This document shows positions 327 through 58,781 of a DNA stretch of 64,000 nucleotides, one piece after another. The stretch is taken from the NCBI GenBank assembly GCA_017408025.1, contig JAFQVJ010000068.1, positions 107,440 to 171,439 of the forward strand, written 5' to 3'. Both the position numbers and the translations under genes were made by a program. This DNA comes from Lachnospiraceae bacterium. GTDB taxonomy: Bacteria > Bacillota > Clostridia > Lachnospirales > Lachnospiraceae. A model generated the notes under the pieces. It had not been told where the DNA came from. It was given only the letters and a program-made list of their open reading frames with translations, and searched no databases. Numbering within the stretch: position 1 is the stretch's first letter; each line of letters opens with the position of its first letter.

Positions 327-361
327 AAAAAAGACCACAACAGACTGGGTCTGTTGCAGCC
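327..361 (-). terminator. Intrinsic terminator / expression platform of the c-di-GMP riboswitch
   Basis: Minus strand GGCUGCAACAGAC-CCA-GUCUGUUGUGGUC (13-bp stem including G-U pairs) followed by UUUUUU. It starts immediately after the aptamer 3' end. Confidence 0.6.
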
Positions 362-458
362 GAACCATCATAATACTATAACCTTTCCCCTGTTATAATC
401 CCTTAGACTTCGTGCTTTGCGTCTCTATGTTTCCATAGGTTTGCCCCGTGAAGTTCAT
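362..458 (-). promoter_or_regulatory. c-di-GMP-I (GEMM-I) riboswitch aptamer
   Basis: Minus strand: CACGGGGCAAACC-UAUG-GAAA-CAUA-GAGACGCAAAGCACGAAGUCUAAGGG-AUUAUAAC...GUUAUAGU...UUCG. It contains the GGCAAACC and ACGCAAAGC cores, a GAAA-tetraloop hairpin and a second hairpin with a UCUAAG receptor-like bulge. Preceded by an extended -10 (TGTTACAAT). Confidence 0.72.
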
Positions 459-12412: not shown

Positions 12413-13888
12413 TCAAATTATAATACAAATGACACCACCCTTGCTATCATTAGTAATTTTTTGCAAGGTTTCCTGCATCTTTGTTTGAGTTTCATCAGAC
12501 AATTTGTCAATTTTTGTCCTTATTCCATCTGTGACTATCTGTTCAATAGTCTTACCAAATATATTGGTATTCCATATACCTTCCATGCCGTCTTTTCCAT
12601 TACTCTTAATAAACTCCATCAAATCCTTCGCTTGCGGCTCATCACCTACAATAGGTGCCAGCTCGGTCTGTACATTTGCTTTAATAAGATGTATAGATGG
12701 GGCTTCAGCTTTGATCTTTACACCATATTTTGTTCCATTCTTTATAACCTCCGGCTCATCCATAACTATCTCATTCTTACTTGGCATCACTACACCATAG
12801 CCTTTAGCCTGAACCTGTTCTAGTGCAGCTGATATCTTATCAAACTCTTCTTTTTTCTCGGAAAGACCTTTAATTGTCATTATCAATTCATATTCATTGG
12901 ATATATTCTGTCCTGTGAACTGGCTTATAACTTCGTAATAATAGTTCTCGGCAATCTCAATCTGTATACGAATAACACCTGTAGATAAATCCTTTTCACT
13001 AATATTCACTCCACTTATATACTGGTTATCTCCAATAAGTTCACGCAATCCCTGCTCGTCGAAAGCCTTCATATATGTACCTTTATTCAGAACATCTCGC
13101 GCAAACTTTATAATAGATGATTTAATATCATGTTCAGAATTTAACAGTTCAACCCATCCAGGCATAAAAAACATAATTTCACTTACAGGAAATTCCATAA
13201 GAACAGCCGATAATATTCTATTTATATCATCCTTTTTTAACTGATTGCAGTTTACTGGCATAACAGTTACTCCATATTTAATCATTAGTAACTCGGACAG
13301 CTTTAACACTTGTTCATCATCTGGTCTTGTAGTGTTAAGCAAAACTATAAATGGTTTATTTAAACTCTTAAGTTCCTTTATAGTCCTCTCCTCCGCCTCC
13401 TCATACTGCTCTCTTGTAAGCTCACCAAAGCTTCCATCAGTCGTAACAACCACACCTATTGTAGAATGATCATTTATAACCTTTTTTGTTCCTATCTCTG
13501 CCGCTTTTGAAAACGGTATATCATACTCGAACCAAGGTGTCTTAACCATTCTCTCTTCATTGTTTTCGATATGACCTGTTGCACCATCAACCATATAACC
13601 AACACAATCAATCAATCTTATTTTTACTGCCGTGTTACTGTTTAATATAACATTTGCAGCTTCCTTAGGAATAAATTTAGGCTCTGTCGTCATAATAGTC
13701 TTTCCTGCCGCAGACTGTGGCAATTCATCTTTTGTTCTTTCACGATTATGTACATCTTCCATATTCGGAATCACCAGTAAATCCATGAATTTTTTTATAA
13801 ATGTTGACTTACCAGTTCTAACAGGTCCCACAACACCAATATATATTTCTCCACCTGTTCTATTCTCAATATCCTTATATAAATCCAT
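12413..13888 (-). CDS. spoIVA: Stage IV sporulation protein A (spore coat morphogenetic ATPase)
   Basis: MDLYKDIENRTGGEIYIGVVGPVRTGKSTFIKKFMDLLVIPNM... matches the SpoIVA N-terminus and Walker A. ATG at 13888 is preceded by AAAGGAG. Confidence 0.93.
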   Translation of the reverse strand: MDLYKDIENRTGGEIYIGVVGPVRTGKSTFIKKFMDLLVIPNMEDVHNRERTKDELPQSAAGKTIMTTEPKFIPKEAANVILNSNTAVKIRLIDCVGYMVDGATGHIENNEERMVKTPWFEYDIPFSKAAEIGTKKVINDHSTIGVVVTTDGSFGELTREQYEEAEERTIKELKSLNKPFIVLLNTTRPDDEQVLKLSELLMIKYGVTVMPVNCNQLKKDDINRILSAVLMEFPVSEIMFFMPGWVELLNSEHDIKSSIIKFARDVLNKGTYMKAFDEQGLRELIGDNQYISGVNISEKDLSTGVIRIQIEIAENYYYEVISQFTGQNISNEYELIMTIKGLSEKKEEFDKISAALEQVQAKGYGVVMPSKNEIVMDEPEVIKNGTKYGVKIKAEAPSIHLIKANVQTELAPIVGDEPQAKDLMEFIKSNGKDGMEGIWNTNIFGKTIEQIVTDGIRTKIDKLSDETQTKMQETLQKITNDSKGGVICIII

Positions 13889-13972: not shown

Positions 13973-15031
13973 TTATTTCAATATTGATAGCTGTCTTGAT
14001 ACCTGCATAAATATCTTTACCAAATCAGGATCATATGTTGTTCCTGCTTCATCTGCTATAATGGCAACAGCTTTTTCACGAGCATCATCTATGGATAATT
14101 CATTATTTCCAGCCATTATTGCACCACATTCACTCTCAAATCTCTTACATACTGATAAAATTCTTGCCGAAAGTGGTATATCATCACCTTTAATTCCCGC
14201 CGGTCTTCCAGTCCCGTCCCATCTCTCATTATGACACTTTGCCACGTCTATTGCCATCTGAAGCATCTCATTATGTTCTGACAAGAACGACAAGTCCTTT
14301 AAGAATTCTACGCCACACTGTTCATGTGGAACATGACCCACACCGTTTGCATTTTTAGCTGACAAGCGTCCAATATTATGAAGAAGCACTGCTTCTCCTA
14401 TAGACTCAATAAATGTGGTGTTTATCTGTTTTTCATACTTATCCGAAAATTCCAATGCCTGAGCTAAAAACCTACAATTATAGGCCATATTTTTAAAGGA
14501 TTCCTCTTTTTCAGGAAAATGAAAAAAGAACATTTTTTCAAGAGCTCTAATTGTATTCTTCTGTTCCTCTTTTATTCTCATCACGTGTTCTTTTACCATT
14601 TTGTTCAGCTTTTTATTATATTCTTCTGTACTCTTCCTCATCTCATACATCTGAACATGGTTATCTACTCGTAAAGAAACCTCTTCCAATGCAAAAGGCT
14701 TATTAATAAAATCCACAGCCCCCAGATTAAATCCCTTAACCTTATCCTCATTTGACATTCCTGCAGATATGAACACTATAGGAATATCCTTTGTATTTAC
14801 ATCATTTTTCAAGATTTCACACAGTTCAAATCCGTCCATCTCCGGCATATACACGTCTAGCAAAATCAATTCCGGCATCTTCATTTTCATCATATCCAAA
14901 GCATCTTTTGCCGAGGATGCCGTTATAGGTGTATAACCACACTTTTCTAGCATTTTCTTCAATATGAGAAGATTTTCAAATAAGTCGTCAACAACAAGGA
15001 CAACTTTTTCGTTATTTATCATTCCATCCAT
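13973..15031 (-). CDS. Response regulator: REC domain plus degenerate HD-GYP domain
   Basis: REC (VLVVDD...LLDVYMPEMDG...KP). C-terminal HD-GYP-like domain has HN for HD (LLHNIGR), HNE for HHE and GRP for GYP (CHNERWDGTGRPAG). ATG at 15031 lies 6 nt after AAGGAG. Confidence 0.85.
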   Translation of the reverse strand: MDGMINNEKVVLVVDDLFENLLILKKMLEKCGYTPITASSAKDALDMMKMKMPELILLDVYMPEMDGFELCEILKNDVNTKDIPIVFISAGMSNEDKVKGFNLGAVDFINKPFALEEVSLRVDNHVQMYEMRKSTEEYNKKLNKMVKEHVMRIKEEQKNTIRALEKMFFFHFPEKEESFKNMAYNCRFLAQALEFSDKYEKQINTTFIESIGEAVLLHNIGRLSAKNANGVGHVPHEQCGVEFLKDLSFLSEHNEMLQMAIDVAKCHNERWDGTGRPAGIKGDDIPLSARILSVCKRFESECGAIMAGNNELSIDDAREKAVAIIADEAGTTYDPDLVKIFMQVSRQLSILK

Positions 15032-15041
15032 ACGCATCTCC

Positions 15042-16541
15042 TTATCTAAATTCTTCTTCAGTTATGCTAGAAAGCATTTCTTTTACATTTCCTAAAATAG
15101 TAATCGCTTTTTCGTAATTAGCTTTCCTTATAGTAAGAATCAACTTAAATAAAAGCTTATCCAAATCTTCACTCTGACCTGCAACTAACTCTTTTATGTT
15201 AGATGCAAACATTTCAGCCTTTTCATAGTTATTTAACTCAATTGTAATGGCAAGCTTATCAACATTCTTGTGTATTTCAGCAAAATTTGCCACAGTACCG
15301 AATTTGCAAACATCTGATATATCTGACTGTTCAAACAACTGACCATTACTATGAGCGACCACATCTGTATATGTAAAGTTATTCTCGTCTATATTACCAG
15401 CTTTATCAGATTTCTTTAGAATAATGTTAAATGAGAACGTACTTCCTTCACCCTTTGTACTCTCCACATATATTTTTCCATTCATCATTTCTACAAGCTG
15501 TTTTGTAATAGCAAGACCAAGTCCTGTACCACCATACTTTCTGGTAACAGAGGCATCAACCTGTGAAAATTCCTTGAACAGCTTCGTCTTTTCTTCCTCA
15601 GATATACCTATACCTGAATCAATGACCATAAAAAACAGCTCAACATAATCATCAGTCTCGCTGGCCTTCATTATTTGAAGCATAACATTTCCCACAGCTG
15701 TAAATTTTACTGCATTAGACATAAGATTATTGAGAATTCTGCTAAGTGCAAGTTCATCACATAACACATACTCTGGAATATCCTTTGCAACATTAAGCAC
15801 AAGTTTCAAACCCTTTTCGTCGATGTTCTTAATATGTGTTGCAACAATATTGTCAATAAACTTACTAAACTTACACTCTTGCTCATCTAAAAGGTATTTA
15901 CCAGCCTCCAACTTTGAGAAATCAAGAATATTGTTGATAAGCTTCATCATATTATCAGCACAATGCTCTATAATCTCAATAGTTCTAATCTGTTCACTAT
16001 TTAACCCTGATTCTCTTAAATCCTTAACATGACCAATGATACCATTAAGTGGTGTCCTAAGCTCATGTGTCACATTTGCCACAAATTCAGTTCTTATTTG
16101 TTCTGTTTTCTTCTGCTCTTCCTTGGCGATATTCATCTGTTTTTCCGCGCTCTTTATCAAAGATGTCTCAATAGCACAAACAGCACCAGTATATCTGTTA
16201 TCGTCAGATATTTTTGAAGCAATTCTTGCCTGCACATCAAAACAAGTCATGTTCTTTCTGTACATGACACTCAATATACTTTCCCCGCCATTCACTTTCT
16301 CAAAAGAAATATGTCCATTATCATCAATAGAAAATACATCGGTGAGAATCTCACCGATATATTTTCCTACGATTTCATCCTGTGAATAGCCTAATTTTTT
16401 TATTCCAGTAACATTACACTCTTTGATAATACCTTTTTTATCAAAGAAAATAATAATCTCCTGTGTAATACTCTGTATAAGTTCACCATGAACTTTGTCA
16501 ATGATAATATCTAAATTAGTCAATTCCATTTCTTTTATCAC
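15042..16541 (-). CDS. Soluble PAS-domain sensor histidine kinase with C-terminal helical extension
   Basis: No TM segments. PAS-like N-terminus, H-box FVANVTHELRTPLNGIIGH, and an HATPase_c domain (GGTGLGLAITKQLVEMMNG). About 120 extra C-terminal residues. Start is uncertain (GTG at 16541 or ATG at 16529). Confidence 0.85.
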   Translation of the reverse strand: MIKEMELTNLDIIIDKVHGELIQSITQEIIIFFDKKGIIKECNVTGIKKLGYSQDEIVGKYIGEILTDVFSIDDNGHISFEKVNGGESILSVMYRKNMTCFDVQARIASKISDDNRYTGAVCAIETSLIKSAEKQMNIAKEEQKKTEQIRTEFVANVTHELRTPLNGIIGHVKDLRESGLNSEQIRTIEIIEHCADNMMKLINNILDFSKLEAGKYLLDEQECKFSKFIDNIVATHIKNIDEKGLKLVLNVAKDIPEYVLCDELALSRILNNLMSNAVKFTAVGNVMLQIMKASETDDYVELFFMVIDSGIGISEEEKTKLFKEFSQVDASVTRKYGGTGLGLAITKQLVEMMNGKIYVESTKGEGSTFSFNIILKKSDKAGNIDENNFTYTDVVAHSNGQLFEQSDISDVCKFGTVANFAEIHKNVDKLAITIELNNYEKAEMFASNIKELVAGQSEDLDKLLFKLILTIRKANYEKAITILGNVKEMLSSITEEEFR

Positions 16542-16544
16542 TTT

Positions 16545-17906
16545 CTAATATTTTCCAAATCCACTTTCAAGCGAAATAATATTTTCATTGCTTCTTGCCA
16601 TACGAGAATTCATCATACCCGTATGGTAATATGGCTGTTCCACATTTCTAAGCTTGAATTTAGCAATAAGTTCTCTAAGTCTCGTAGCCTGATTTGAAAG
16701 CTCTTCACTTGCTGCAGCACATTGCTCACTTGTAGCCGAATTGCTCTGTACAACCTGTGATACCTGACCAAGAGCCTGATCAATCTGTGTTACCGCTGTA
16801 GCCTGCTCATTTGAAGCCGATGCAATTTCGCTTATAATATTTACAATTTTATCAATATTTTCTACGATTTCAGCTAGTGCTGCACCTGTTTCTTCTGCAA
16901 TCCTTGAACCTCTCTCAATCTTACTGATAGAATTCTCAATAAGCTCTGATGTTTCACTGGCTGCTTGCGAGCTCTTAGCTGCAAGATTTCTAACTTCTTC
17001 AGCAACTACTGCAAAGCCTTTACCATGAGCACCTGCCCTCGCCGCCTCAACAGCAGCATTTAAAGCAAGAATATTTGTCTGGAATGCAATATCATCAATC
17101 ACTTTGATAATCTTCGAAATATTTTCAGATGATTCATTAATCTCATTCATAGCAACCATCATTTCCTGCATCTGCTCATTGCCCTTTACAGCACCAGCCT
17201 TTGTTTCAATAACAAGCTTGTTTGCATTATTTGCCTCTGCAGCATTAACCATTGTACGCTGTGCTATATCATCAATAGATGCTGTAATTTCTTCAAGAGC
17301 ACTAGCCTGCTCTGTAGACCCCTGAGCAAGAGACTGACTGGCAGATGCAACCTGTTCAGAACCTGTTGTAACCTGCATAGATGCTTCGCGTATATTCCCA
17401 AGTATATGGTTATTGTCATCAACGAGCTTCTTCAAGGATTTTCCAAGAATATCAATGTCTGTTCTTGGTTCTACATCCATAGACATATCACCTTCTGCTA
17501 TTCTATTAGTCAACTCTGCATCATGCTTAATATTAGCAACTGTCTCTTGTAATGCATTAATGATAGTACCAAATTCATCATCACAAAACTTCTTCAGTTC
17601 TACCTCAACACCGCCATCCCCTACTACCTTGATAGCTTTTACAATCTGCTTTAATGACACTCGTATAGAGCGCCATACATACACACCCAGGCTCACAATG
17701 GTCAATAGAGCCACCACTATCAACACAAAAGAAAATACAGTAAAGCTTCTTATATAACTTTCGGCTTTATCACCGCCAAACCACTCTACGGCATTAGCTA
17801 TACCCATAAAAAGTAGCACTGCAAACATAACTATGAAAAATACCGAAAAAATTATCAGCCAACATACTTTTGTTGATATTTTCCCATTCTTTATCTTAGT
17901 CAACAT
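16545..17906 (-). CDS. Methyl-accepting chemotaxis protein (paralog 1)
   Basis: Two TM helices separated by about 19 aa, a HAMP-like linker, and a conserved MCP signalling domain ([37 protein letters not shown]). Confidence 0.92.
16632..17525 (-). repeat. About 0.9 kb paralogous repeat (MCP signalling-domain coding segment), copy 1 of 3
   Basis: Near-identical at protein level and roughly 90% at DNA level (judged by eye) to 18610-19491 and 20016-20897. Confidence 0.8.
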
Positions 17907-17950
17907 AACATGTACCTCCGATTATTCCTTCTCACTATTTCAGCACATCT

Positions 17951-18478
17951 CTATGCTTCTGCGTTTTCCTCTGCCTGTGCTTCTTCAGCAGCCTCTTCCA
18001 TAAATTCCAAATCTTCATCCTTGATAAGCTTATCTGGATCCAGCAGAAGTTTAACAGCCTCACCTACTTTTCCTAAGCCCCATACATATTTATTCATAGC
18101 ATTTCCATGAACAAGCTTTGGTGGTGGCTCTATGTCTTCATCCTGAATAGTAACTACCTCCTCTATTTTTTCAACGATAAGACCAATTACTGTTGACTGA
18201 ACATCTATAATAATAATACATGTTCTATCGTTGTACTCTAAAGGTTCCTGCTTAAATCTAAGTCTCACATCTATAACAGGGATAATCTTTCCGCGAAGAT
18301 TGATCAGACCCTTTATGTATTCCTCTGACTCAGGGATTGCTGTAATATTCTGAATGCCTATAATCTCATTAACAAACTTTATAGATATTCCAAAATGCTC
18401 ACGACCCGACTTAAAGGTCATATACATACCCTTCTGGGTATCTTCTTCTTCTAACATTTCTTCTATAATATCACTCAC
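17951..18478 (-). CDS. cheW: Chemotaxis coupling protein CheW
   Basis: CheW-like domain (FGISIKFVNEIIGIQNITAIPESEEYIKGLINLRGKIIPVIDVRLRF) with an acidic C-terminal tail. GTG start lies 7 nt after GGAGG. Confidence 0.9.
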   Translation of the reverse strand: MSDIIEEMLEEEDTQKGMYMTFKSGREHFGISIKFVNEIIGIQNITAIPESEEYIKGLINLRGKIIPVIDVRLRFKQEPLEYNDRTCIIIIDVQSTVIGLIVEKIEEVVTIQDEDIEPPPKLVHGNAMNKYVWGLGKVGEAVKLLLDPDKLIKDEDLEFMEEAAEEAQAEENAEA

Positions 18479-18519
18479 CGTTATTCCTCCATTTCTATAT
18501 TATTCTCTAATAGCATGCG

Positions 18520-19887
18520 CTAGTATTTGCCAAAGCCACCTTCCAGTGAAATAATATTTTCGTTATTGTTCACGGACATCATATTTGTCTGATAATATGG
18601 TTGTTCAGTATTTCTCAGTTTGAATTTAACAATAAGTTCTCTAAGTCTCATAGCCTGATTTGAAAGCTCCTCACTTGCTGCAGCACATTGTTCGCTGGTT
18701 GCTGAATTACTCTGTACAACCTGTGATACCTGTCCAAGTGCCTGGTCAATCTGAGTTACTGCAGTTGCCTGTTCATTTGATGCTGTAGCAATTTCGCTTA
18801 TAATATTGACAACCTTATCGATGTTCTCAACAATCTCTGCTAATGCAGCGCCTGTTTCTTCTGCAATCTTAGAGCCTTTTTCAACCTTGCTGATAGAATT
18901 CTCTATAAGCTCCGCTGTCTCACTTGCAGCCTGTGCACTTTTTGCAGCCAGATTTCTAACCTCTTCTGCAACTACTGCAAAACCTTTTCCGTGGGCACCG
19001 GCTCTTGCCGCCTCTACAGCTGCATTTAACGCCAGGATATTTGTCTGGAATGCAATATCATCAATCACTTTAATAATCTTTGAAATATTCTCTGATGATT
19101 CGTTGATTTCATTCATCGCAACCATCATTTCTTTCATCTGCTCATTACCCTTTACAGCACCAGCCTTTGTCTCGTTAACCAGCTTGTTGGCATTATTTGC
19201 CTCTGCCGCATTAACCTTCGTACGATGTGCAATATCGTCAATTGATGCTGTAATTTCCTCAAGTGCACTTGCCTGCTCTGTAGAGCCCTGTGCAAGGGAC
19301 TGACTTGCTGAAGCAACCTGTTCAGAGCCTGTTGTGACCTGCATTGACGCTTCACGTATATTACCAAGCACATGATTATTGTCATCAACAAGCTTTTTTA
19401 ATGACCTTCCAAGAACATCTATATCTGTTCTTGGTTTAATTTCCATAGACATATCGCCTTCTGCAATTCTGTCTGCCAGTTCTGCATCATGCTTTACAGC
19501 AACTGCCATTTCATTAATAGCTGATATAATATCACCAAATTCATCATTAGTGTCCCTTTGTACTTCTACATCTACACCACCATCACGAACAATATTGATT
19601 GCTCCAATAATTTTCTTTAAATTAAAAGATATTGTCCGTGAAACATATACTCCTAAAGCTACAATCATAACCTCGAACACCACTGCAGTTATAATACTCT
19701 GTAAAACAATGGAATTTGCTTTTTCTGCCATCTGTGCTTCTGACAAACCTGCGTATCCGCCAATTTTTTGAGCTACTACATATAACTGCAACGAAAAAAG
19801 TATAATTACAGTAATTGATAATCCTACGAGAGCTCTAACCTTTGTCTTTACCTTCATATTTTTCATTATTTTTGTTGTGATTAACAT
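18520..19887 (-). CDS. Methyl-accepting chemotaxis protein (paralog 2)
   Basis: Same architecture as paralog 1. The N-terminal ~130 aa are divergent and the rest is near-identical. Confidence 0.92.
18610..19491 (-). repeat. About 0.9 kb paralogous repeat, copy 2 of 3
   Basis: See 16632-17525. Confidence 0.8.
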
Positions 19888-19931
19888 TCTTACGCCTCCA
19901 ATCCATTTCAGGTTTCCTCGTGCTACATAGC

Positions 19932-21263
19932 TTAGTACTTACCAAAGCCATTTCCTAGGGAAATGATTTTTTCATTATCATTTGTTACACTCTTCTGATA
20001 ATATGGCTGGCTATATTCCCTGAGCTTAAACTTAGATATAAGCTCTCTAAGACGTATAGCCTGATTTGAAAGCTCCTCACTTGCTGCAGCACACTGCTCA
20101 CTTGTAGCTGAATTGCTCTGCACAACCTGTGACACTTGTCCAAGTGCCTGATCAATCTGTGTAACTGCTGTAGCCTGCTCATTTGAAGCTGTTGCAATTT
20201 CACTTATAATATCTACTATCTTATCAATATTTTCTACGATTTCAGCAAGGGCAGCACCTGTCTCCTCTGCAATTTTTGAACCCTTTTCAACCTTACCGAT
20301 AGAATTCTCAATAAGCTCCGCTGTCTCACTTGCAGCCTGTGCGCTCTTTGCAGCAAGATTTCTAACTTCTTCAGCAACTACGGCAAAGCCTTTTCCATGT
20401 GTGCCTGCTCTTGCTGCCTCTACAGCTGCATTTAATGCAAGAATATTGGTCTGGAATGCAATATCATCGATCACTTTAATAATCTTCGAAATATTTTCTG
20501 ATGATTCATTGATTTCATTCATTGCAATCATCATTTCCTTCATTTGCGCGTTACCCTTTACTGCTCCAGCCTTTGTTTCAATAACAAGCTTGTTGGCATT
20601 ATTGGCCTCTGCAGCATTAACCTTCGTACGCTGTGCTATATCATCAATTGATGCTGTAATCTCTTCAAGTGCACTTGCCTGCTCTGTAGAACCCTGTGCA
20701 AGGGACTGACTTGCAGATGCAACCTGTTCAGAACCTGTTGTAACCTGCATAGAAGCCTCTCGGATATTTCCAAGTACATGATTGTGATCATCAAGAAGTT
20801 TTTTAAATGACTTTCCTAATTCATCAATATCTGTTCTAGGGGAAACATCCATAGACAAATCACCTTCTGCTATTTCATCTGCAATATTCGCATCATCTTT
20901 AATATTTTTTACAGTAGCATTTAATGCATCAATGATAATACCAAATTCATCCTCATTGTATTTCTCAAGCTCAATTTCGACACCACCATCACCAATAATC
21001 TTAATAGCTTTAACAATTTCATCTAAAGGCTTTTTGATACACTTTCTTATGTAATATCCACTAGCGATCATTATAACCATAAACACAAATGACACTGCTA
21101 TTATAAATATTTTCGCATTATTCGCATAACTGCCTACGTATAAACCCGGTCTCTCTAAAAAATCTTTACCCAAGCTTGTTAATAATGCAATAATTACTAT
21201 CGCTATACCTATTAAAGAATTAATTTTTGTTGTTATCTTTGAATTCTTATATCTTTTTATCAT
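19932..21263 (-). CDS. Methyl-accepting chemotaxis protein (paralog 3)
   Basis: Same architecture: two TM helices with a ~21-aa loop, HAMP, and a conserved signalling domain. Confidence 0.92.
20016..20897 (-). repeat. About 0.9 kb paralogous repeat, copy 3 of 3
   Basis: See 16632-17525. Confidence 0.8.
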
Positions 21264-21335
21264 ACTTTATTCCCTTCCGCTACCACACGTTTATACATCT
21301 CTATATAACCGTTTTAGTCTCTCTATGCCTACGCT

Positions 21336-23435
21336 TTATATTAATCCACCAACATCGAGTATCAGTGCAACACTTCCATCACCAAGCTGTGTACAGCCTG
21401 AAAGCCCCTGCACCTTCTTGAAATAGTCTGGAATAGGTTTTACAACAATTTCCTGTTCACCGATAAGCGATGAGATAAATACACATACCTTCTTACCTTC
21501 ATGCTCAAGAACTGCCATAACATCTCTTTCGGGATCCACTTGATAGCCTTCAATCTTGTACTTTTCTCCAAGGTTTACAAGTGGCATAATTTCGTCTCTT
21601 ATGCGAACTGCGGTATCCCCTGTTGGATTTTCTATAATTGTTCCCTCTGAAACTCTAACAAACTCTTTAACAGCATTAGTTTCCACCACAAATGTAGATG
21701 AACCAATTTTCAGAACTATGCCTGTTATGATTGCAAGAGTAAGTGGTATCTTCATTGTCATTGTTGAACCTTTGCCCTGAACACTGTCAATTTCAAGAGT
21801 TCCACCGACATTGCTAAGATTCTTTACTACAACATCCATACCAACTCCACGTCCAGAAAGCTCGGTAACCTTTTCCTTTGTAGAAAATCCTGGGAGAGTT
21901 ATGAATTGGAATATTTCCTTATCCGAATACTCAATATCCTTGTTAATAAGACCATTTTTCCTAGCCTTGGCCAGAATTTTCTCTTTGTTAAGTCCTTGAC
22001 CATCGTCCTCCACTACAATCAGTACTTTACCGCCCTCATTCTTGGCTGTTAATTTGATAACACCTTTAGGATCTTTGCCAACTGCCATACGATTCTCTTT
22101 CGTCTCAATACCGTGATCAACAGAATTTCGTATAATATGCATAAGCGGATCGGAGATATTTTCAATTATATTCTTATCTACCTCCGTATTTTCACCAGAT
22201 ATAACAAGCTCTATCTCTTTTCCAAGCTTTCTGGCAGAATCGAAGACTATTCTGTTCATCTTCTGGAATGTCGGATTAAGAGGCACCATTCTCATAGACA
22301 TTATAACCTCTTGCAAATCAGATGTTATCTTCATAAGCTGACCAGTTGCCTTCGTGAAATTCGTCAAATCGAGACCTGGAACCTTAAGGTCAGGATTCTG
22401 TGCCACGACAGCCTCCGCTATTACGATTTCACCGATTAAATCCATTAGCTGATCCATCTTCTCTACATTGATACTGATAAATGTCTGCTTTGGTTTAACC
22501 TCATTCTTTGCAAGTTTTTTTGCCTTACCAACTTCTTTTGATTTGATAACATAATCACCAGGTTTTGGTTCTTTCTTTTCCTTTTCCGCTTTTTCTTCAA
22601 TTTGTTCTACAGTTGATGTCAAATCTATGACCGCATCATTAGACTCAAACCCAAGCTGATACTCCTTGGCCGAACACTCGTAGATATCGATTTTTTCAAC
22701 CTCCGAGCCGTCTATCATCTCCAGTATTTCTTCTTTAGAACACTGTGCCTGTAAAAGCATCTTAAAACCATCCTTTAAGATCACATCAGCACTTGCTTCA
22801 TTCGTAAGAATATCCTCTGGTGTAAAAAGCAAATCTTCTGCAACCTCTTTCAATGCATATGTTGCAGAATATGCTCTTATATTGCTCATCATTGTGTCAC
22901 TGCGATAAGTCATATGAATCTTATAGAAATGACTGTTTTCCGTAGAAACAGGTGGAATATAAAACTGACTAGGTGCCACATAAACGTTTTCTGGTGGCAT
23001 CTCTTTCTTTTCATCCTTTTGAATCTCATGCTTTATGGTCTTGAGGAATTTCTCAAGGTTCTCCATAATTTCTGATTCATCACCATCTGGTTCTTCACCA
23101 TCTCTAATTTTATCTAACTCACCTGATATAAATCCCGAAACATCTAATACATAGCCAACAAGCTCCATATGTGGGATATTATCTGGCTTTGACTCTCGAA
23201 TATAATAAAATATATCCTCAAGTTTATGAGATACCTTTGTGATATTCTCAAACATCATAATACCTGATGAACCCTTAATCGTATGCATTACCCTAAAAAT
23301 TTCATTTATATCATCAGATTCAAAAGACTCTGCATCCTTTTTTTCGATAACTAATTCATCAAGTTTTTCAAGAAGCTGCCCACTCTCAAAGAGAAATATG
23401 TCAAGCATTCCCTCAGTATTAAACTCCTGAGACAT
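21336..23435 (-). CDS. cheA: Chemotaxis histidine kinase CheA
   Basis: Hpt P1 (FRVMHTIKGSSG), dimerisation domain, HATPase domain (GRGVGMDVV), and a C-terminal CheW-like P5 domain. Confidence 0.95.
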   Translation of the reverse strand: MSQEFNTEGMLDIFLFESGQLLEKLDELVIEKKDAESFESDDINEIFRVMHTIKGSSGIMMFENITKVSHKLEDIFYYIRESKPDNIPHMELVGYVLDVSGFISGELDKIRDGEEPDGDESEIMENLEKFLKTIKHEIQKDEKKEMPPENVYVAPSQFYIPPVSTENSHFYKIHMTYRSDTMMSNIRAYSATYALKEVAEDLLFTPEDILTNEASADVILKDGFKMLLQAQCSKEEILEMIDGSEVEKIDIYECSAKEYQLGFESNDAVIDLTSTVEQIEEKAEKEKKEPKPGDYVIKSKEVGKAKKLAKNEVKPKQTFISINVEKMDQLMDLIGEIVIAEAVVAQNPDLKVPGLDLTNFTKATGQLMKITSDLQEVIMSMRMVPLNPTFQKMNRIVFDSARKLGKEIELVISGENTEVDKNIIENISDPLMHIIRNSVDHGIETKENRMAVGKDPKGVIKLTAKNEGGKVLIVVEDDGQGLNKEKILAKARKNGLINKDIEYSDKEIFQFITLPGFSTKEKVTELSGRGVGMDVVVKNLSNVGGTLEIDSVQGKGSTMTMKIPLTLAIITGIVLKIGSSTFVVETNAVKEFVRVSEGTIIENPTGDTAVRIRDEIMPLVNLGEKYKIEGYQVDPERDVMAVLEHEGKKVCVFISSLIGEQEIVVKPIPDYFKKVQGLSGCTQLGDGSVALILDVGGLI

Positions 23436-23482
23436 CTTATATCCTCCTTCCTTTGTAACATTCCGTTTACCTGCGGAATAAT

Positions 23483-23890
23483 TTATTTTTTAGCTACAAA
23501 TCCAAGTCTTTCAAGAAGAATTGTAAACTTCTCAACATTTACAGGCTTACCTACATATGCATCGCATCCGATTTCCATGGCTTTTTTGACATTGATTTCC
23601 TGATTCAATGCAGTAGTCATAATAACTCTGGCCTTCTGCTCAGCCGGAAGATTTCTTTCTTTCTCAATCTTCCTTATAGTATCCAACACCTGATATCCAT
23701 CAAGCATCGGCATCATAACGTCAAGAATAACCAAGTCATAATTATCCTCATCCTCATCTTCCAATGCCATCAAATATGCATCTACCGCCTCAAGACCATT
23801 TACGGTGACATCACATTCACCATACTCTCCAAGTAGTTTACTCATAAACTTTCTACTTGCAAAATCATCTTCAGCCAATAAAATTTTCAT
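23483..23890 (-). CDS. cheY: CheY-like single-domain response regulator
   Basis: 135-aa REC-only protein (ILLAEDD...LDVMMPMLDG...GKP) directly downstream of cheB and upstream of cheA. Confidence 0.85.
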   Translation of the reverse strand: MKILLAEDDFASRKFMSKLLGEYGECDVTVNGLEAVDAYLMALEDEDEDNYDLVILDVMMPMLDGYQVLDTIRKIEKERNLPAEQKARVIMTTALNQEINVKKAMEIGCDAYVGKPVNVEKFTILLERLGFVAKK

Positions 23891-23912
23891 AATTATATAC
23901 TCCTTTCAATCT

Positions 23913-24950
23913 CTATGACCATTTACTCAATAGTCCATGTATTTTTTCCGGAATTGCTTTTAATCCGGTCTGATATAGTACACCTCCCAGTTCCTTTGCA
24001 ACCTTCGGCATACCGTATACTATACAACTTTCTTCATCTTGCCCTATAGTAAGTGCTCCTTGCTCCCGCATCTTATACAGGCCCTTGGCTCCATCAGCTC
24101 CCATACCGGTAAGTAACACCCCTATAGCATTCTTTCCACAGGCAGTAGCCACCGACTCAAAAAGTACATCTACCGATGGACAATGACCACTTACACGTGG
24201 TCCTTTGTAACATTCTATCTGATAATTGCTTCCGACTTTCACAACCTTCATCTGCTTATCACCAGGCGCCACATAAACATATCCTGATTTGATTACATCT
24301 CCTGTCTTTCCTTCGGAAACTTTAAACTTTGTCTGGTTATCGAGTCTATCTGCAAACATCTGTGTAAATCCTGGTGGCATATGCTGCGTTATAACAATTC
24401 CTGGTGCATCTCCGTCTAAACCATCCAACACTGAGCTTATAGCTTCAGTTCCTCCTGTAGACGCTCCAATTGCCAAGACAACATTTTTGTATCTGTCACC
24501 CTGAACAGGCAAATTCTGCATATTACCACTATATTTTGCTCTTTTAAAATTACTAAGCTTAACAGTAGACGCAATTTTTACCTTAGTAACAAGTTCATTA
24601 TGTATGAAATCTCCCAATTGTTCCTTTGACATTCCCGCTGGTTTATTTACAAAATCCACTGCACCTGCATTTAACGCATCAAACACCTTATCATTAAGCG
24701 AACTAACCATTACTACAGGTAACGGATGCTGTGGCATCAATTTCCGCAAAAACTCAATACCATCCATCTTCGGCATCTCCACATCAAGGGTCATCACATC
24801 TGGCTCATATTTTATTATCTTATCACGAGCTTCAAAGGGATCACCTGCTGTTGCAACAACCTCAATGGCAGAATCTGCATTAAGACCATTTACAAGAACA
24901 TTCCGGAACATATAGGAATCTTCTACTACCAATACCCTTATCTTTTTCAT
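23913..24950 (-). CDS. cheB: Protein-glutamate methylesterase CheB
   Basis: N-terminal REC plus a methylesterase domain (AIGASTGGTEA ... ITQHMPPGFT ... GMGADG). Confidence 0.93.
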   Translation of the reverse strand: MKKIRVLVVEDSYMFRNVLVNGLNADSAIEVVATAGDPFEARDKIIKYEPDVMTLDVEMPKMDGIEFLRKLMPQHPLPVVMVSSLNDKVFDALNAGAVDFVNKPAGMSKEQLGDFIHNELVTKVKIASTVKLSNFKRAKYSGNMQNLPVQGDRYKNVVLAIGASTGGTEAISSVLDGLDGDAPGIVITQHMPPGFTQMFADRLDNQTKFKVSEGKTGDVIKSGYVYVAPGDKQMKVVKVGSNYQIECYKGPRVSGHCPSVDVLFESVATACGKNAIGVLLTGMGADGAKGLYKMREQGALTIGQDEESCIVYGMPKVAKELGGVLYQTGLKAIPEKIHGLLSKWS

Positions 24951-24956
24951 ATCATC

Positions 24957-25760
24957 CTACTTTCGATAAACAGATGGTCTTACATACTTAAAGTTTGTCT
25001 TTGATTTATCAATAGACTCCGTCGTTCCGATAAACATATATCCACCTGGTACCAACATATCGTATATTCTGTTTACTAAATTATTTTTTGTCTCTTCGTC
25101 AAAATATATCATTACATTACGAATGAACACTACATGTAGTTTCTGTCTAAATGGCAACGGATCCATCAAATTAAATTTTCTAAATATAACCTGCTTTTTT
25201 AATTCATCAGTCACTACACACTCTTCAGTTCCCACGCTCCGAAAATATCTGCGTTTCCATACATCAGGCAATGGTTCAATCTGTTCCTTGAGATACTTTC
25301 CACTTTCAGCATGTTCCAAAACACGAGTTGAAATATCCGTCGCTAAAACTGTTGTATCCCACAACCTGTCCTCAAGGGCAAAAAAATCTTTATATATCAT
25401 TGCCAAAGTATATGCCTCTTCTCCTGTGGAAGCTGCTGCGCACCATGTTCTTAAATCTTTTGTGTTTGCCAAAGAATTTTTAACTTCCGGTAAGACAATA
25501 TCTTTAAGAAATCTAAAATGCTCAGATTCTCTCATGAAATATGTATGATTTGTAGTCAGATTATCTATAAGATCACGTACCTCTTTACTATCAGGTTTAT
25601 TTTCGACCTTGCTCATAAAATCTGAATAGCTTTCATATCCGTTCCTAGCCAGATAATTATCAAGTCTTCCTGTAACGAGCACCTTTTTTTGACTCAAATC
25701 TATTCCATAATTTGATTTGACGTAATTGACAATTCTGAAAAACTCAACATCTGTTATCAT
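24957..25760 (-). CDS. cheR: Chemotaxis protein methyltransferase CheR
   Basis: CheR SAM-dependent methyltransferase (WCAAASTGEEAYTLAM ... FIRNVMIYFD). Start is probably the internal ATG at 25760 (MITDVEFFRIV...). The track start at 25823 has no RBS. Confidence 0.9.
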   Translation of the reverse strand: MITDVEFFRIVNYVKSNYGIDLSQKKVLVTGRLDNYLARNGYESYSDFMSKVENKPDSKEVRDLIDNLTTNHTYFMRESEHFRFLKDIVLPEVKNSLANTKDLRTWCAAASTGEEAYTLAMIYKDFFALEDRLWDTTVLATDISTRVLEHAESGKYLKEQIEPLPDVWKRRYFRSVGTEECVVTDELKKQVIFRKFNLMDPLPFRQKLHVVFIRNVMIYFDEETKNNLVNRIYDMLVPGGYMFIGTTESIDKSKTNFKYVRPSVYRK

Positions 25761-25852
25761 ATCAACTACCTTTTTTTCACTATACTCTGCTATAATCACT
25801 GTATGACATTGGGAAGCTATCATACATGTATAGTAAAGCTCTCACAAGTTAT

Positions 25853-25881
25853 ATAATAACAAATTTTTCTACAATTTTCAA
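25853..25881 (-). promoter_or_regulatory. Sigma-A-type promoter of the che operon
   Basis: Minus strand TTGAAA-N17-TATTAT in the 194-nt gap upstream of cheR. Confidence 0.4.
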
Positions 25882-25963: not shown

Positions 25964-26004
25964 CAAAAAGAGTGCTACACAATTATATAATTGTGCAACA
26001 CCCT
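25964..26004 (-). terminator. Intrinsic terminator of the transglutaminase-like gene
   Basis: Minus strand GGUGUUGCACAAUUAU/AUAAUUGUGUAGCACU stem followed by CUUUUUG. Confidence 0.6.
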
Positions 26005-57989: not shown

Positions 57990-58781
57990 TTATTTTTGAA
58001 GGCGTATTTTATCGGAAATAAGTGCAATGAACTCTGAATTTGTAGGTTTCCCTTTGCCAGTATTAATAGTATATCCAAACATTTCCTCTATTGTTTCAAG
58101 CTTTCCTCTATTCCAAGCGACTTCAATAGCATGTCTTATAGCTCTCTCAACTCTTGAAGATGTAGTCTTATGCTTTTTTGCTATTTCAGGGTACAAAATC
58201 TTTGTAATAGCACCAAGCATTTCCTGATCCTTAACAGTCATTATGATTGCATCTCTAAGATACTGATACCCCTTAATATGAGCAGGCACACCAACTTCAT
58301 GAATAAACTCTGTTACAATCACTTCCAAATCCTTCTCAGTCTGTTCAGGTGATGCTAAAGTTTTGGCTACAATTCTTCCAGCAACACTCTTATGCTGACC
58401 ATTTACTTTTAACTGCTTCATCCTATATAAGAGCGTATCATGATCAAACGGCTTCATAATGTAATAATTAGCTCCAAGGCTGAAAGCATCCTCCGTGATA
58501 GCTTCCTGACCCACTGCACTCATTACAACAAATGCAGGATGCTTGTCTAGTGTAGCATCCCTATTGATCTTGTCCATCACTGTCAAACCATCAAGCTTAG
58601 GCATGATAATATCAAGCAATACTACATCAGGCTTTTCTTTCTTAATCATATCGTATGCTTCCTGACCGTTCTTTGCTTTTCCTACAACGGAAATGTCCTC
58701 ATCTGTACTCAATATGTCTGACAAAAGTGTCACTATTCTCTCATTATCGTCGGCTACCACTACATTTAATTTTCCTTCCAT
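57990..58781 (-). CDS. spo0A: Sporulation master regulator Spo0A
   Basis: REC domain plus the Spo0A-specific C-terminal DNA-binding domain ([19 protein letters not shown] ... [17 protein letters not shown]). Confidence 0.95.

Follow-up and report, generated by a model that had tools for sequence, protein, structure and literature searches.

We analyzed a 64,000-nucleotide (nt) stretch of DNA, hereafter the window, from a Lachnospiraceae bacterium (GenBank assembly GCA_017408025.1, contig JAFQVJ010000068.1, positions 107,440 to 171,439 of the forward strand), in which ten co-directional minus-strand genes form a chemosensory cluster of the order cheR-cheB-cheY-cheA-mcp-mcp-cheW-mcp-PAS kinase-REC/HD-GYP-like regulator (Table 1). 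Comparisons with the remainder of the genome and with related genomes revealed that the chemotaxis (Che) genes of the cluster belong to a second system of distinct receptor class, and that the kinase and regulator genes at its end are conserved as a pair beside the Che core. The ten genes and the domain content listed by the first-pass annotation, which had been made from the sequence without database searches, were all recovered by Pfam, and the spacing it described (3–72 nt, with 3 and 4 nt at the last two junctions) agrees with the gaps between the open reading frames (ORFs), which from cheR to the regulator are 6, 22, 47, 72, 44, 41, 44, 3 and 4 nt. The kinase may instead start at ATG 16529 and the regulator at ATG 15031, leaving putative gaps of 15 nt to mcp3 and 10 nt to the kinase, respectively; whichever start is used, the last two junctions are no longer than 15 nt (3–15 nt and 4–10 nt). 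The cheR start at ATG 25760 is favored by a ribosome-binding site and by the lengths of its orthologs (267–282 amino acids, aa), and the same two kinds of evidence point to the later kinase and regulator starts. A consensus scan called nothing resembling a terminator on the minus strand between any two genes of the cluster. In addition, a tblastn search of the window with a whole fla/che operon returned che paralogs and REC domains alone, which bears out that the window carries no flagellar, cheC, cheD or switch genes, as had been stated.

Table 1. Features of the chemosensory cluster and its upstream flank (coordinates are those of the window).
Feature	Coordinates	Strand	Evidence and remarks
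cheR	24957..25823	-	Pfam CheR_N + CheR, E 2e-55; probable start 25760, giving 267 aa
cheB with REC domain	23913..24950	-	Pfam Response_reg + CheB_methylest, E 4e-61
cheY, stand-alone receiver, 135 aa	23483..23890	-	Pfam Response_reg
cheA, five domains P1-P5	21336..23435	-	Pfam Hpt, P2, H-kinase_dim, HATPase_c, CheW
mcp1: two transmembrane segments, short loop, HAMP, 36-heptad signalling domain, C-terminal tail	19932..21263	-	Tsr alignment, transmembrane prediction
mcp2, paralog of mcp1	18520..19887	-	Pfam, DNA comparison
cheW, Escherichia coli-like coupling protein	17951..18478	-	Pfam CheW, E 4e-36
mcp3, paralog of mcp1 and mcp2	16545..17906	-	Pfam, DNA comparison
Soluble PAS-HisKA-HATPase kinase, predicted C-terminal four-helix bundle at ~416-499	15042..16541	-	Pfam, AlphaFold2 model
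Regulator, REC + degenerate HD-GYP-like domain	13973..15037	-	Pfam Response_reg, partial HD_5/HD; probable start 15031
Candidate sigma-70-like promoter 5' of cheR, TTGAAA-17-TATTAT with TG extension	25853..25881	-	10 of 12 consensus matches; consensus match alone
Hairpin followed by T-run, just 3' of a transglutaminase-like gene	25965..26004	-	By eye: AGGGTGTTGCACAATT-ATAT-AATTGTGTAGCACTCT, then TTTTG

Pfam matches to the methyl-accepting chemotaxis proteins (MCPs), CheW, the five-domain CheA, CheR, CheB and the stand-alone receiver were all well above gathering scores, identifying the core as that of a Che pathway. The phospho-acceptor and catalytic motifs are intact in CheA (H-box FRVMHTIKGSSG), CheB (triad motifs), CheY (receiver Asp, Thr and Lys), the kinase and the REC domain of the regulator. 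The three cluster MCPs aligned to E. coli Tsr (3zx6, 6s1k, 1qu7) with zero gaps from approximately residue 146 to 418, a span that begins in the HAMP region and runs to where the coiled coil ends, and therefore are 36-heptad (36H) receptors. From the hairpin tip to the KFKL end, the arm of the cluster MCPs measures ~128 aa (~18 heptads) and is followed by a ~30-aa tail, whereas most of the genome's 15 other MCPs have an arm of ~155 aa (150–157 aa, 22 heptads) and no tail, which places them in class 44H. The class of these other MCPs was determined by direct arm-length counts, as alignment to Thermotoga maritima TM1143 gave a 7-residue offset. A determination of heptad class had been proposed by the first-pass annotation, and its outcome separates the cluster receptors from most others in the genome. 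In the literature 36H receptors are paired with F7 systems and 44H receptors with F1 systems (PMC6943060, PMC9321776, PMC7184735). The cluster CheA scored 350 bits to E. coli CheA versus 291 bits to T. maritima CheA, and the cluster CheW 107 versus 37 bits to the respective CheW proteins, while CheR was equally similar to the PDB representatives of F1, F6 and F7 and did not discriminate between the classes. By its receptor class and its similarity to E. coli proteins relative to those of T. maritima, and not by class-specific hidden Markov models (HMMs), the cluster appears F7-like; we use that wording because 36H receptors have also been assigned to F1, F3 and Tfp (PMC11253619). Clade membership aside, the cluster has neither of the features of the alternative cellular function (ACF) systems that we looked for: its receptors are 36H and not 40H, and its CheA has no receiver domain. 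An alternative function may be compatible with a position outside ACF.

The assembly comprises 2.35 Mb in 71 contigs and is 91% complete; its closest public relatives are Lachnospiraceae metagenome-assembled genomes (MAGs) from goat rectum and colon and other fecal samples, with CheA proteins 86–90% identical. The first-pass annotation had advised a search of the whole genome for a separate flagellar che cluster, regarding a sole cluster in a flagellated organism as damaging to its proposal. Such a second cluster exists: another CheA is encoded on a different contig (C30) in a classical Firmicute fla/che operon of the order flhA-flhF-flhG-ycgR-like PilZ-cheB-cheA-cheW-cheC-cheD-x-sigD, with fliM-fliY-cheY, including a canonical cheY, further upstream. 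This flagellar chemotaxis system is F1-type, and its Che proteins are 33–37% identical to those of the cluster (CheB 33%, CheA 37%). Given this fla/che operon on another contig, the window cluster is therefore an accessory system. The cluster CheR is the sole CheR found in the 91%-complete assembly. The absence of a second copy is probably an assembly gap, because the four closest relatives have two CheR each and five other carriers of the cluster have two CheA and two CheR each; alternatively, the cluster CheR may be shared with the F1 system.

Further features of the receptors and of CheY set the cluster apart. The cluster MCPs have two transmembrane segments with a very short loop between them, no ligand-binding domain, and a second HAMP-like segment after the first. 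The three mcp genes are 76–93% identical in DNA over the signalling domain, where mcp1 and mcp2 are 76–92% identical, versus 32–60% over the first ~270 nt, a pattern consistent with duplication together with homogenization or strong constraint, and with diverged transmembrane and loop inputs; relatives with the other gene order (see below) have a single MCP. All three proteins end in GFGKY after the ~30-aa tail, and the tail motif, NExIISLxxxFGKY, recurs in the cluster-linked MCPs of other genera, while none of the genome's 15 other MCPs has it. The pentapeptide GFGKY fits the xZxxZ rule (aromatics at positions 2 and 5) and would be a candidate tether for CheR and CheB. Pentapeptide tethers are rare in Clostridiales, being found on 2.9% of receptors (PMC7390727). 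From these motifs, the cluster pathway and its adaptation set look insulated from the other MCPs. The best PDB matches of the cluster CheY are receivers of SLN1-type hybrid kinases and not CheY proteins, and it shares 31% identity over 91 aa with the CheY encoded beside fliM/fliY, whereas its own orthologs are 56–78% identical to it. These similarities set the cluster receiver apart from typical motor CheY proteins. We also considered that the cluster CheY might supply the missing D1 receiver of an RpfC-like relay, a candidate role that was rejected as the protein has no specific similarity to the receivers of the hybrid-kinase paralogs of this genome.

The kinase has no predicted transmembrane segment and hence is soluble. 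It matches HisKA (E 4e-20, with the H-box VTHELRTPLNG) and HATPase_c (E 1e-25) with its H-box, N, G1 and G2 motifs intact, and the adjacent REC domain (E 1e-24) has the expected DD...D...S...K residues, so that the two proteins have the sequence hallmarks of an orthodox HisKA kinase/regulator pair. Within the clade formed with its close relatives, the HisKA/HATPase core is 87–88% identical, while the PAS domain is fast-evolving (43–47%). Of the closest kinase paralogs in the genome, one (contig C7:19897-23520) is a single 1208-aa protein of the architecture transmembrane sensor-HisKA-HATPase-REC-Hpt-helical domain-REC-HD-GYP, and another (C11:3594-8647) is a 1017-aa hybrid kinase followed by a REC-HD-GYP-GGDEF gene. 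Such fused or adjacent RpfC/RpfG-style paralogs support phosphotransfer from the kinase to the regulator. The final ~85 residues of the kinase (~416–499) were modeled by AlphaFold2 as a four-helix bundle, with a predicted local distance difference test (pLDDT) score of 80 for the model and 87–95 over the helices. The best matches of this tail in a fold search were weak and comprised plant and bacterial histidine phosphotransfer (Hpt) proteins (E 0.06, TM-scores 0.58–0.67). There is no His at the Hpt position in 13 of 13 kinase orthologs (FASNIKEL and similar), and the Pfam search for an Hpt domain in the tail returned noise alone. The modeled tail is Hpt-like in shape only. In both paralogs, the helical segment that follows the Hpt domain resembles the tail of the window kinase.

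The regulator departs from the HD-GYP enzymes at most of the positions that define them. Pfam HD_5 was matched over profile positions 90–170 only, at 53 bits, whereas the genome's other HD-GYP proteins score 105–135 bits. Compared with PA4781 (4r8z) and PmGH (4mcw), the window regulator has HN for HD, HN for HH and GRP for GYP; in full, it has SF at the first His, LHNIG at HD, CHNE at HHE, FES at the late YDA and GRP at GYP, as well as an 11-residue deletion in the lid relative to solved HD-GYP enzymes and to orthologs. The four closest relatives have the same 11-residue deletion and lack the first His, the second HHE His and the GYP Tyr, but keep the Asp of HD (LHDIG/LHDVG). Elsewhere the picture varies: canonical motifs are present in the orthologs of several genomes and loci (our labels G054, G012, G046, L048, L087 and L039–L042), Acetitomaculum ruminis providing an example of a canonical ortholog, and other orthologs are partly altered (CD for HD, GSP for GYP). 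With most of the metal ligands and GYP lost, hydrolysis of cyclic di-GMP (c-di-GMP) by the window regulator is unlikely, and so is, for this genome, a second-messenger output of this kind, which the first-pass annotation had envisaged. We retain a fold-level relationship to the HD-GYP phosphodiesterases alone. Within the clade, the REC domain is 77–84% identical and the HD-like domain 50–52% with conserved patches, and the latter domain is kept here, though probably not as an enzyme. By analogy with PA2572 of Pseudomonas aeruginosa, the degenerate domain may still be regulatory.

To place the cluster among its relatives, 100 genera of the family were sampled, together with 71 loci around CheA relatives from named genomes. 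In the 100-genus sample, clear orthologs of the regulator were identified in 10 genomes and of the cluster CheW in 13, and nine of the ten genomes with a regulator ortholog also have the CheW ortholog. Overall, more than 20 species of Lachnospiraceae have the kinase/regulator pair in synteny with an ortholog of the che core, in most of them upstream of cheR. The order of the window, cheR...mcp-kinase-regulator-spoIVA, is common to the four closest relatives (L035, L036, L037 and L053), while the order kinase-regulator-cheR-cheB-cheY-cheA-cheW-mcp was found in at least 16 further genomes. These span many genera, and among them are Acetitomaculum ruminis DSM 5522 and MAGs labeled Roseburia, Agathobacter, Lachnobacterium and Eubacterium. 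A tree of CheA sequences joins the window clade (81% by the Shimodaira–Hasegawa-like approximate likelihood ratio test, SH-aLRT) to one of two clades having the upstream order; since it sits among these, the downstream position of the pair is probably derived.

Several rarer variants depart further from the window order. In a reduced form (L033:9776-14364 in G054 and L034:993-5041 in G012), the kinase is followed by a canonical REC-HD-GYP gene and a short CheA that has Hpt and HATPase domains and no P5/CheW-like domain, with a CheY ortholog following in G054 only; there are no adjacent receptor, CheW, CheR or CheB genes, and in G012 a CheW and a 36H MCP are on another contig. Roseburia sp. 1XD42-69 (L103:3-16785) has two hybrid kinases, a REC-Hpt gene and a REC gene upstream of the che core and two REC-HD-GYP genes downstream of it. 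The REC-Hpt protein of this strain has the canonical His and a helical C-terminal extension. At another locus (L110:1638-8781, G095) the order is cheA-cheW-mcp-cheR-cheB-749-aa kinase-cheY-like, with no REC-HD-GYP gene in the fetched stretch. The retention of the adjacency through several rearrangements supports a functional link of the pair with the che core, for which conserved adjacency is good evidence, short of proof. A sister clade of ~45 Lachnospiraceae species has an orphan CheA of the cluster type with CheV nearby and without the kinase/regulator pair. These orphan CheA proteins (L049–L086 and others, e.g., L086:10001-12163 of Lachnospiraceae bacterium A4) are 54–57% identical to the window CheA and 30% to the F1 CheA; no CheW, MCP, CheR or CheB genes adjoin them, an OmpR-type two-component system and CheV lie a few kb downstream, and their genomes also carry a second, F1-like CheA.

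On the cluster's downstream side, the regulator and spoIVA ORFs are 24 nt apart, and spoIVA most likely starts at 13888, which would leave 84 nt. Upstream, the hairpin listed in Table 1 is likely a terminator insulating the che operon from the gene before it, as far as its sequence indicates; the consensus terminator scan did not call this hairpin. At the start of the window, a c-di-GMP-I riboswitch aptamer (352–455, minus strand, 51 bits, E 4.5e-7) lies 13.5 kb from the cluster, and the gene it regulates extends past the window start. Both spoIVA and the riboswitch had been brought forward by the first-pass annotation as relevant context. The two are indeed present and are incidental neighbors of the cluster, a linkage being rejected because the spoIVA adjacency is confined to the window's small clade, unrelated genes being found next to the cluster in other genera, and because the riboswitch is distant. 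Elsewhere in the window, the best match to the flagellar CheY is a receiver at 58410–58781 (minus strand; 34% identity over 119 aa), which is part of a 263-aa ORF (57990–58781).

The reading towards which we lean, with modest confidence, is that the cluster encodes a self-contained accessory 36H, F7-like pathway, which stands apart from the F1 system and makes up a single genetic unit with the two-component pair. Beyond the gene content, receptor class, second chemotaxis system, synteny and degenerate motifs established above, we infer phosphotransfer steps, binding steps and a physiological output as follows. The three receptors, with almost no periplasmic domain, would assemble with CheW and CheA into an array of their own; they would be adapted by the cluster CheR and CheB, which the conserved C-terminal tail would recruit; and CheA would phosphorylate the cluster CheY and CheB. 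The soluble PAS kinase would phosphorylate the adjacent REC-HD-GYP-like regulator, and the Che branch could modulate this step, either by phosphotransfer to the same receiver or by docking on the His-less, Hpt-like tail. The ancestral output was probably the breakdown of c-di-GMP, feeding, for example, the YcgR-type PilZ brake of the flagellar operon. This is because many relatives encode a regulator with a canonical HD-GYP phosphodiesterase. In the window clade, where the catalytic residues are gone, the regulator is most likely a phosphorylation-controlled adaptor or nucleotide sensor and not an enzyme. The genome has an extensive c-di-GMP network, comprising ~10 GGDEF proteins, 11 HD_5 proteins, the PilZ protein of the flagellar operon and the c-di-GMP-I riboswitch. 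With this network and the PilZ brake in the genome, and with every sampled carrier flagellated, the output probably concerns the motile lifestyle. The proposal of the first-pass annotation that this is an alternative-function Che pathway therefore stands in part: the system is second, distinct in class and self-contained, with the pair conserved beside its core, whereas an output other than swimming is not borne out, the sampled carriers all being flagellated.

A more specific form of coupling, which we consider unlikely, is that the Che array gates the two-component system non-covalently. The Hpt-like bundle of the kinase would dock a phosphorylated receiver, either the cluster CheY once phosphorylated by CheA or the REC domain of the regulator itself, such that receptor signalling would switch the kinase-to-regulator step on or off, and the non-catalytic HD-GYP domain would then relay the signal through a binding partner such as an MCP (the case in PA2572), a GGDEF enzyme or a flagellar brake. 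If true, this would be a new coupling of a chemosensory array to a two-component output and would give a function to the accessory 36H systems of many gut Lachnospiraceae.

Of the other explanations, a possible though less probable one is that the operon holds two separately wired modules, in which the che core serves a second kind of taxis and signals to the flagellar motor through a CheY of its own, while the pair is an ordinary two-component system that is merely co-expressed. In its favor, FlhA was found in 14 of 14 carriers versus 38 of 86 non-carriers in the 100-genus sample (Fisher one-sided p = 4e-5, with related genomes not independent). The taxis parts list is complete, including a P2-bearing CheA, CheY, CheR and CheB, flagella can be driven by an F7/36H system, as in E. 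coli and with the Arcobacter-type F7 systems (PMC9321776, PMC7184735), and the kinase paralogs are fused to their own REC-HD-GYP domains without Che parts. Against it, the modules have remained adjacent through at least three rearrangements and in reduced forms without receptors, the cluster CheY is far from the motor CheY encoded beside fliM/fliY, the cluster receptors lack a ligand-binding domain, and the genome already has a full F1 system with ~15 receptors. Several observations nonetheless weigh against the self-contained accessory pathway that we favor. The flagellated state of all carriers fits a second motor-directed taxis pathway equally well, and the cluster CheY retains residues matching E. 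coli T87, Y106 and K109, so binding to FliM is possible. The linkage is frequent and not universal, with the pair and the che core on different contigs in one genome (G029) and three to four CheW-positive genomes having no clear regulator ortholog. The F7 assignment is drawn from the class of the receptors and from comparative scores against E. coli proteins, and not from class-specific HMMs, and fold matches at E ~0.06, from which the Hpt-like call for the kinase tail is made, are expected for any four-helix bundle. Finally, the fast evolution of the HD-like domain relative to REC may mean that the domain is being lost.

Direct control of c-di-GMP hydrolysis by the Che pathway, with CheA or the kinase activating an enzymatically active REC-HD-GYP protein in this genome, is decidedly improbable. 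It would account for an architecture that matches P. aeruginosa PA4781, for the canonical motifs of several orthologs and for the rich c-di-GMP network of the genome, but the window protein lacks the first His, the HD Asp, the second HHE His, the late Asp and the GYP Tyr and has 11 lid residues deleted, its four closest relatives share the deletion and most of the losses (the HD Asp being retained), and its HD_5 match is confined to the C-terminal half and scores 53 bits, well below the 105–135 bits of the genome's other HD-GYP proteins. Least probable of all, to the point of being very hard to credit, is that the cluster is linked to sporulation, regulating spoIVA or development, or is a decaying and non-functional remnant. 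The cluster abuts spoIVA with no terminator between them, and the HD domain is degenerate and fast-evolving, as such an explanation would have it. Against this, outside the window's small clade the neighbors are genes unrelated to spoIVA, each of the ten ORFs is intact and the catalytic motifs are conserved, CheA and CheW are 89–91% identical across the clade versus 75–78% for spoIVA, and the MCPs have been duplicated and kept.

Among characterized systems, the cluster has similarities to the ancestral (stage 1–2) F7 systems of gamma-proteobacteria, namely Che2 of P. aeruginosa and cluster III of Vibrio cholerae (PMC7184735). Those systems are likewise accessory, with 36H receptors lacking a periplasmic sensor and with their own CheY, CheA, CheW, CheR and CheB; they are always found beside a separate flagellar system, and their receptors have a C-terminal tether for their own CheR and CheB. 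What these systems control is unknown, the motor being regarded as an unlikely target (PMC7184735). However, the window is from a monoderm Lachnospiraceae whose partner flagellar system is F1 and not F6, its receptors are two-transmembrane HAMP proteins and not PAS-HAMP Aer2, its putative membership of F7 is judged by similarity and not by class HMMs, and in place of CheD, STAS and phosphatase genes it has a HisKA kinase and a REC-HD-GYP-type regulator. A parallel to the pair is PA2571-PA2572-PA2573 of P. aeruginosa, in which genes for a sensor kinase, a REC protein with a degenerate HD-GYP domain (YN-GYP) and an MCP are adjacent (PMC3411652). The REC domain of PA2572 binds the adjacent MCP in two-hybrid assays and its degenerate domain retains regulatory activity (PMC3411652). 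The P. aeruginosa locus has an orphan MCP only, without CheA, CheW, CheR, CheB or CheY, and has kept GYP, whereas the window has a full Che core and has lost GYP (GRP).

The pairing of a HisKA kinase with a REC-HD-GYP protein also recalls RpfC/RpfG of Xanthomonas, the exact design of the closest paralogs in the window genome. Unlike RpfC, the window kinase is soluble, PAS-sensing and without a receiver, its Hpt-like tail has no His, and the pair, with a degenerate HD-GYP domain, is embedded in a Che operon. A che cluster that encodes or adjoins a histidine kinase other than CheA has precedents in Che3-CrdS/CrdA of Myxococcus xanthus (PMC3147164) and Che3-CheS3/CheY3 of Rhodospirillum centenum (PMC3868531), where CheA and the second kinase act on a shared regulator or on each other with a non-taxis output (PMC3147164, PMC3868531). 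Those systems are proteobacterial and of different Che classes, their outputs are the sigma-54 activator CrdA or cyst development via CheY3, and CheS3 is phosphorylated on a REC domain that it carries itself, a domain absent from the window kinase. The Wsp system of Pseudomonas, an ACF system, is comparable in that the output of its array is a receiver fused to a c-di-GMP turnover domain (WspR, CheY-GGDEF) and in that its receptor needs no specific periplasmic ligand domain (PMC8846402). It differs in making c-di-GMP and in having 40H receptors and a CheA-REC hybrid, while the window system has a degrading-type domain that is probably inactive in its clade, 36H receptors and an extra kinase.

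No paper describing this Lachnospiraceae cluster was found in full-text literature searches. Its parts are all of known families, and the novelty is in the wiring and not in the kind of protein. A review places every Che system with a known effect on c-di-GMP in the ACF or Tfp class, and its examples are Gram-negative (PMC8846402), whereas the window system is neither ACF by receptor class nor Gram-negative. Accessory 36H systems are common, but what most of them control has yet to be identified, Pseudomonas and Vibrio included. Here, in Gram-positive commensals of the gut and rumen related to Roseburia, Agathobacter and Acetitomaculum, a 36H system is linked at the gene level to a kinase and a regulator of HD-GYP type, and the catalytic state of that regulator ranges from canonical to fully degenerate across lineages, a natural series. 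With this series, and with some carriers in culture (A. ruminis DSM 5522 and Roseburia sp. 1XD42-69 among them), the output of the array and the change from phosphodiesterase to pseudo-enzyme become testable questions.

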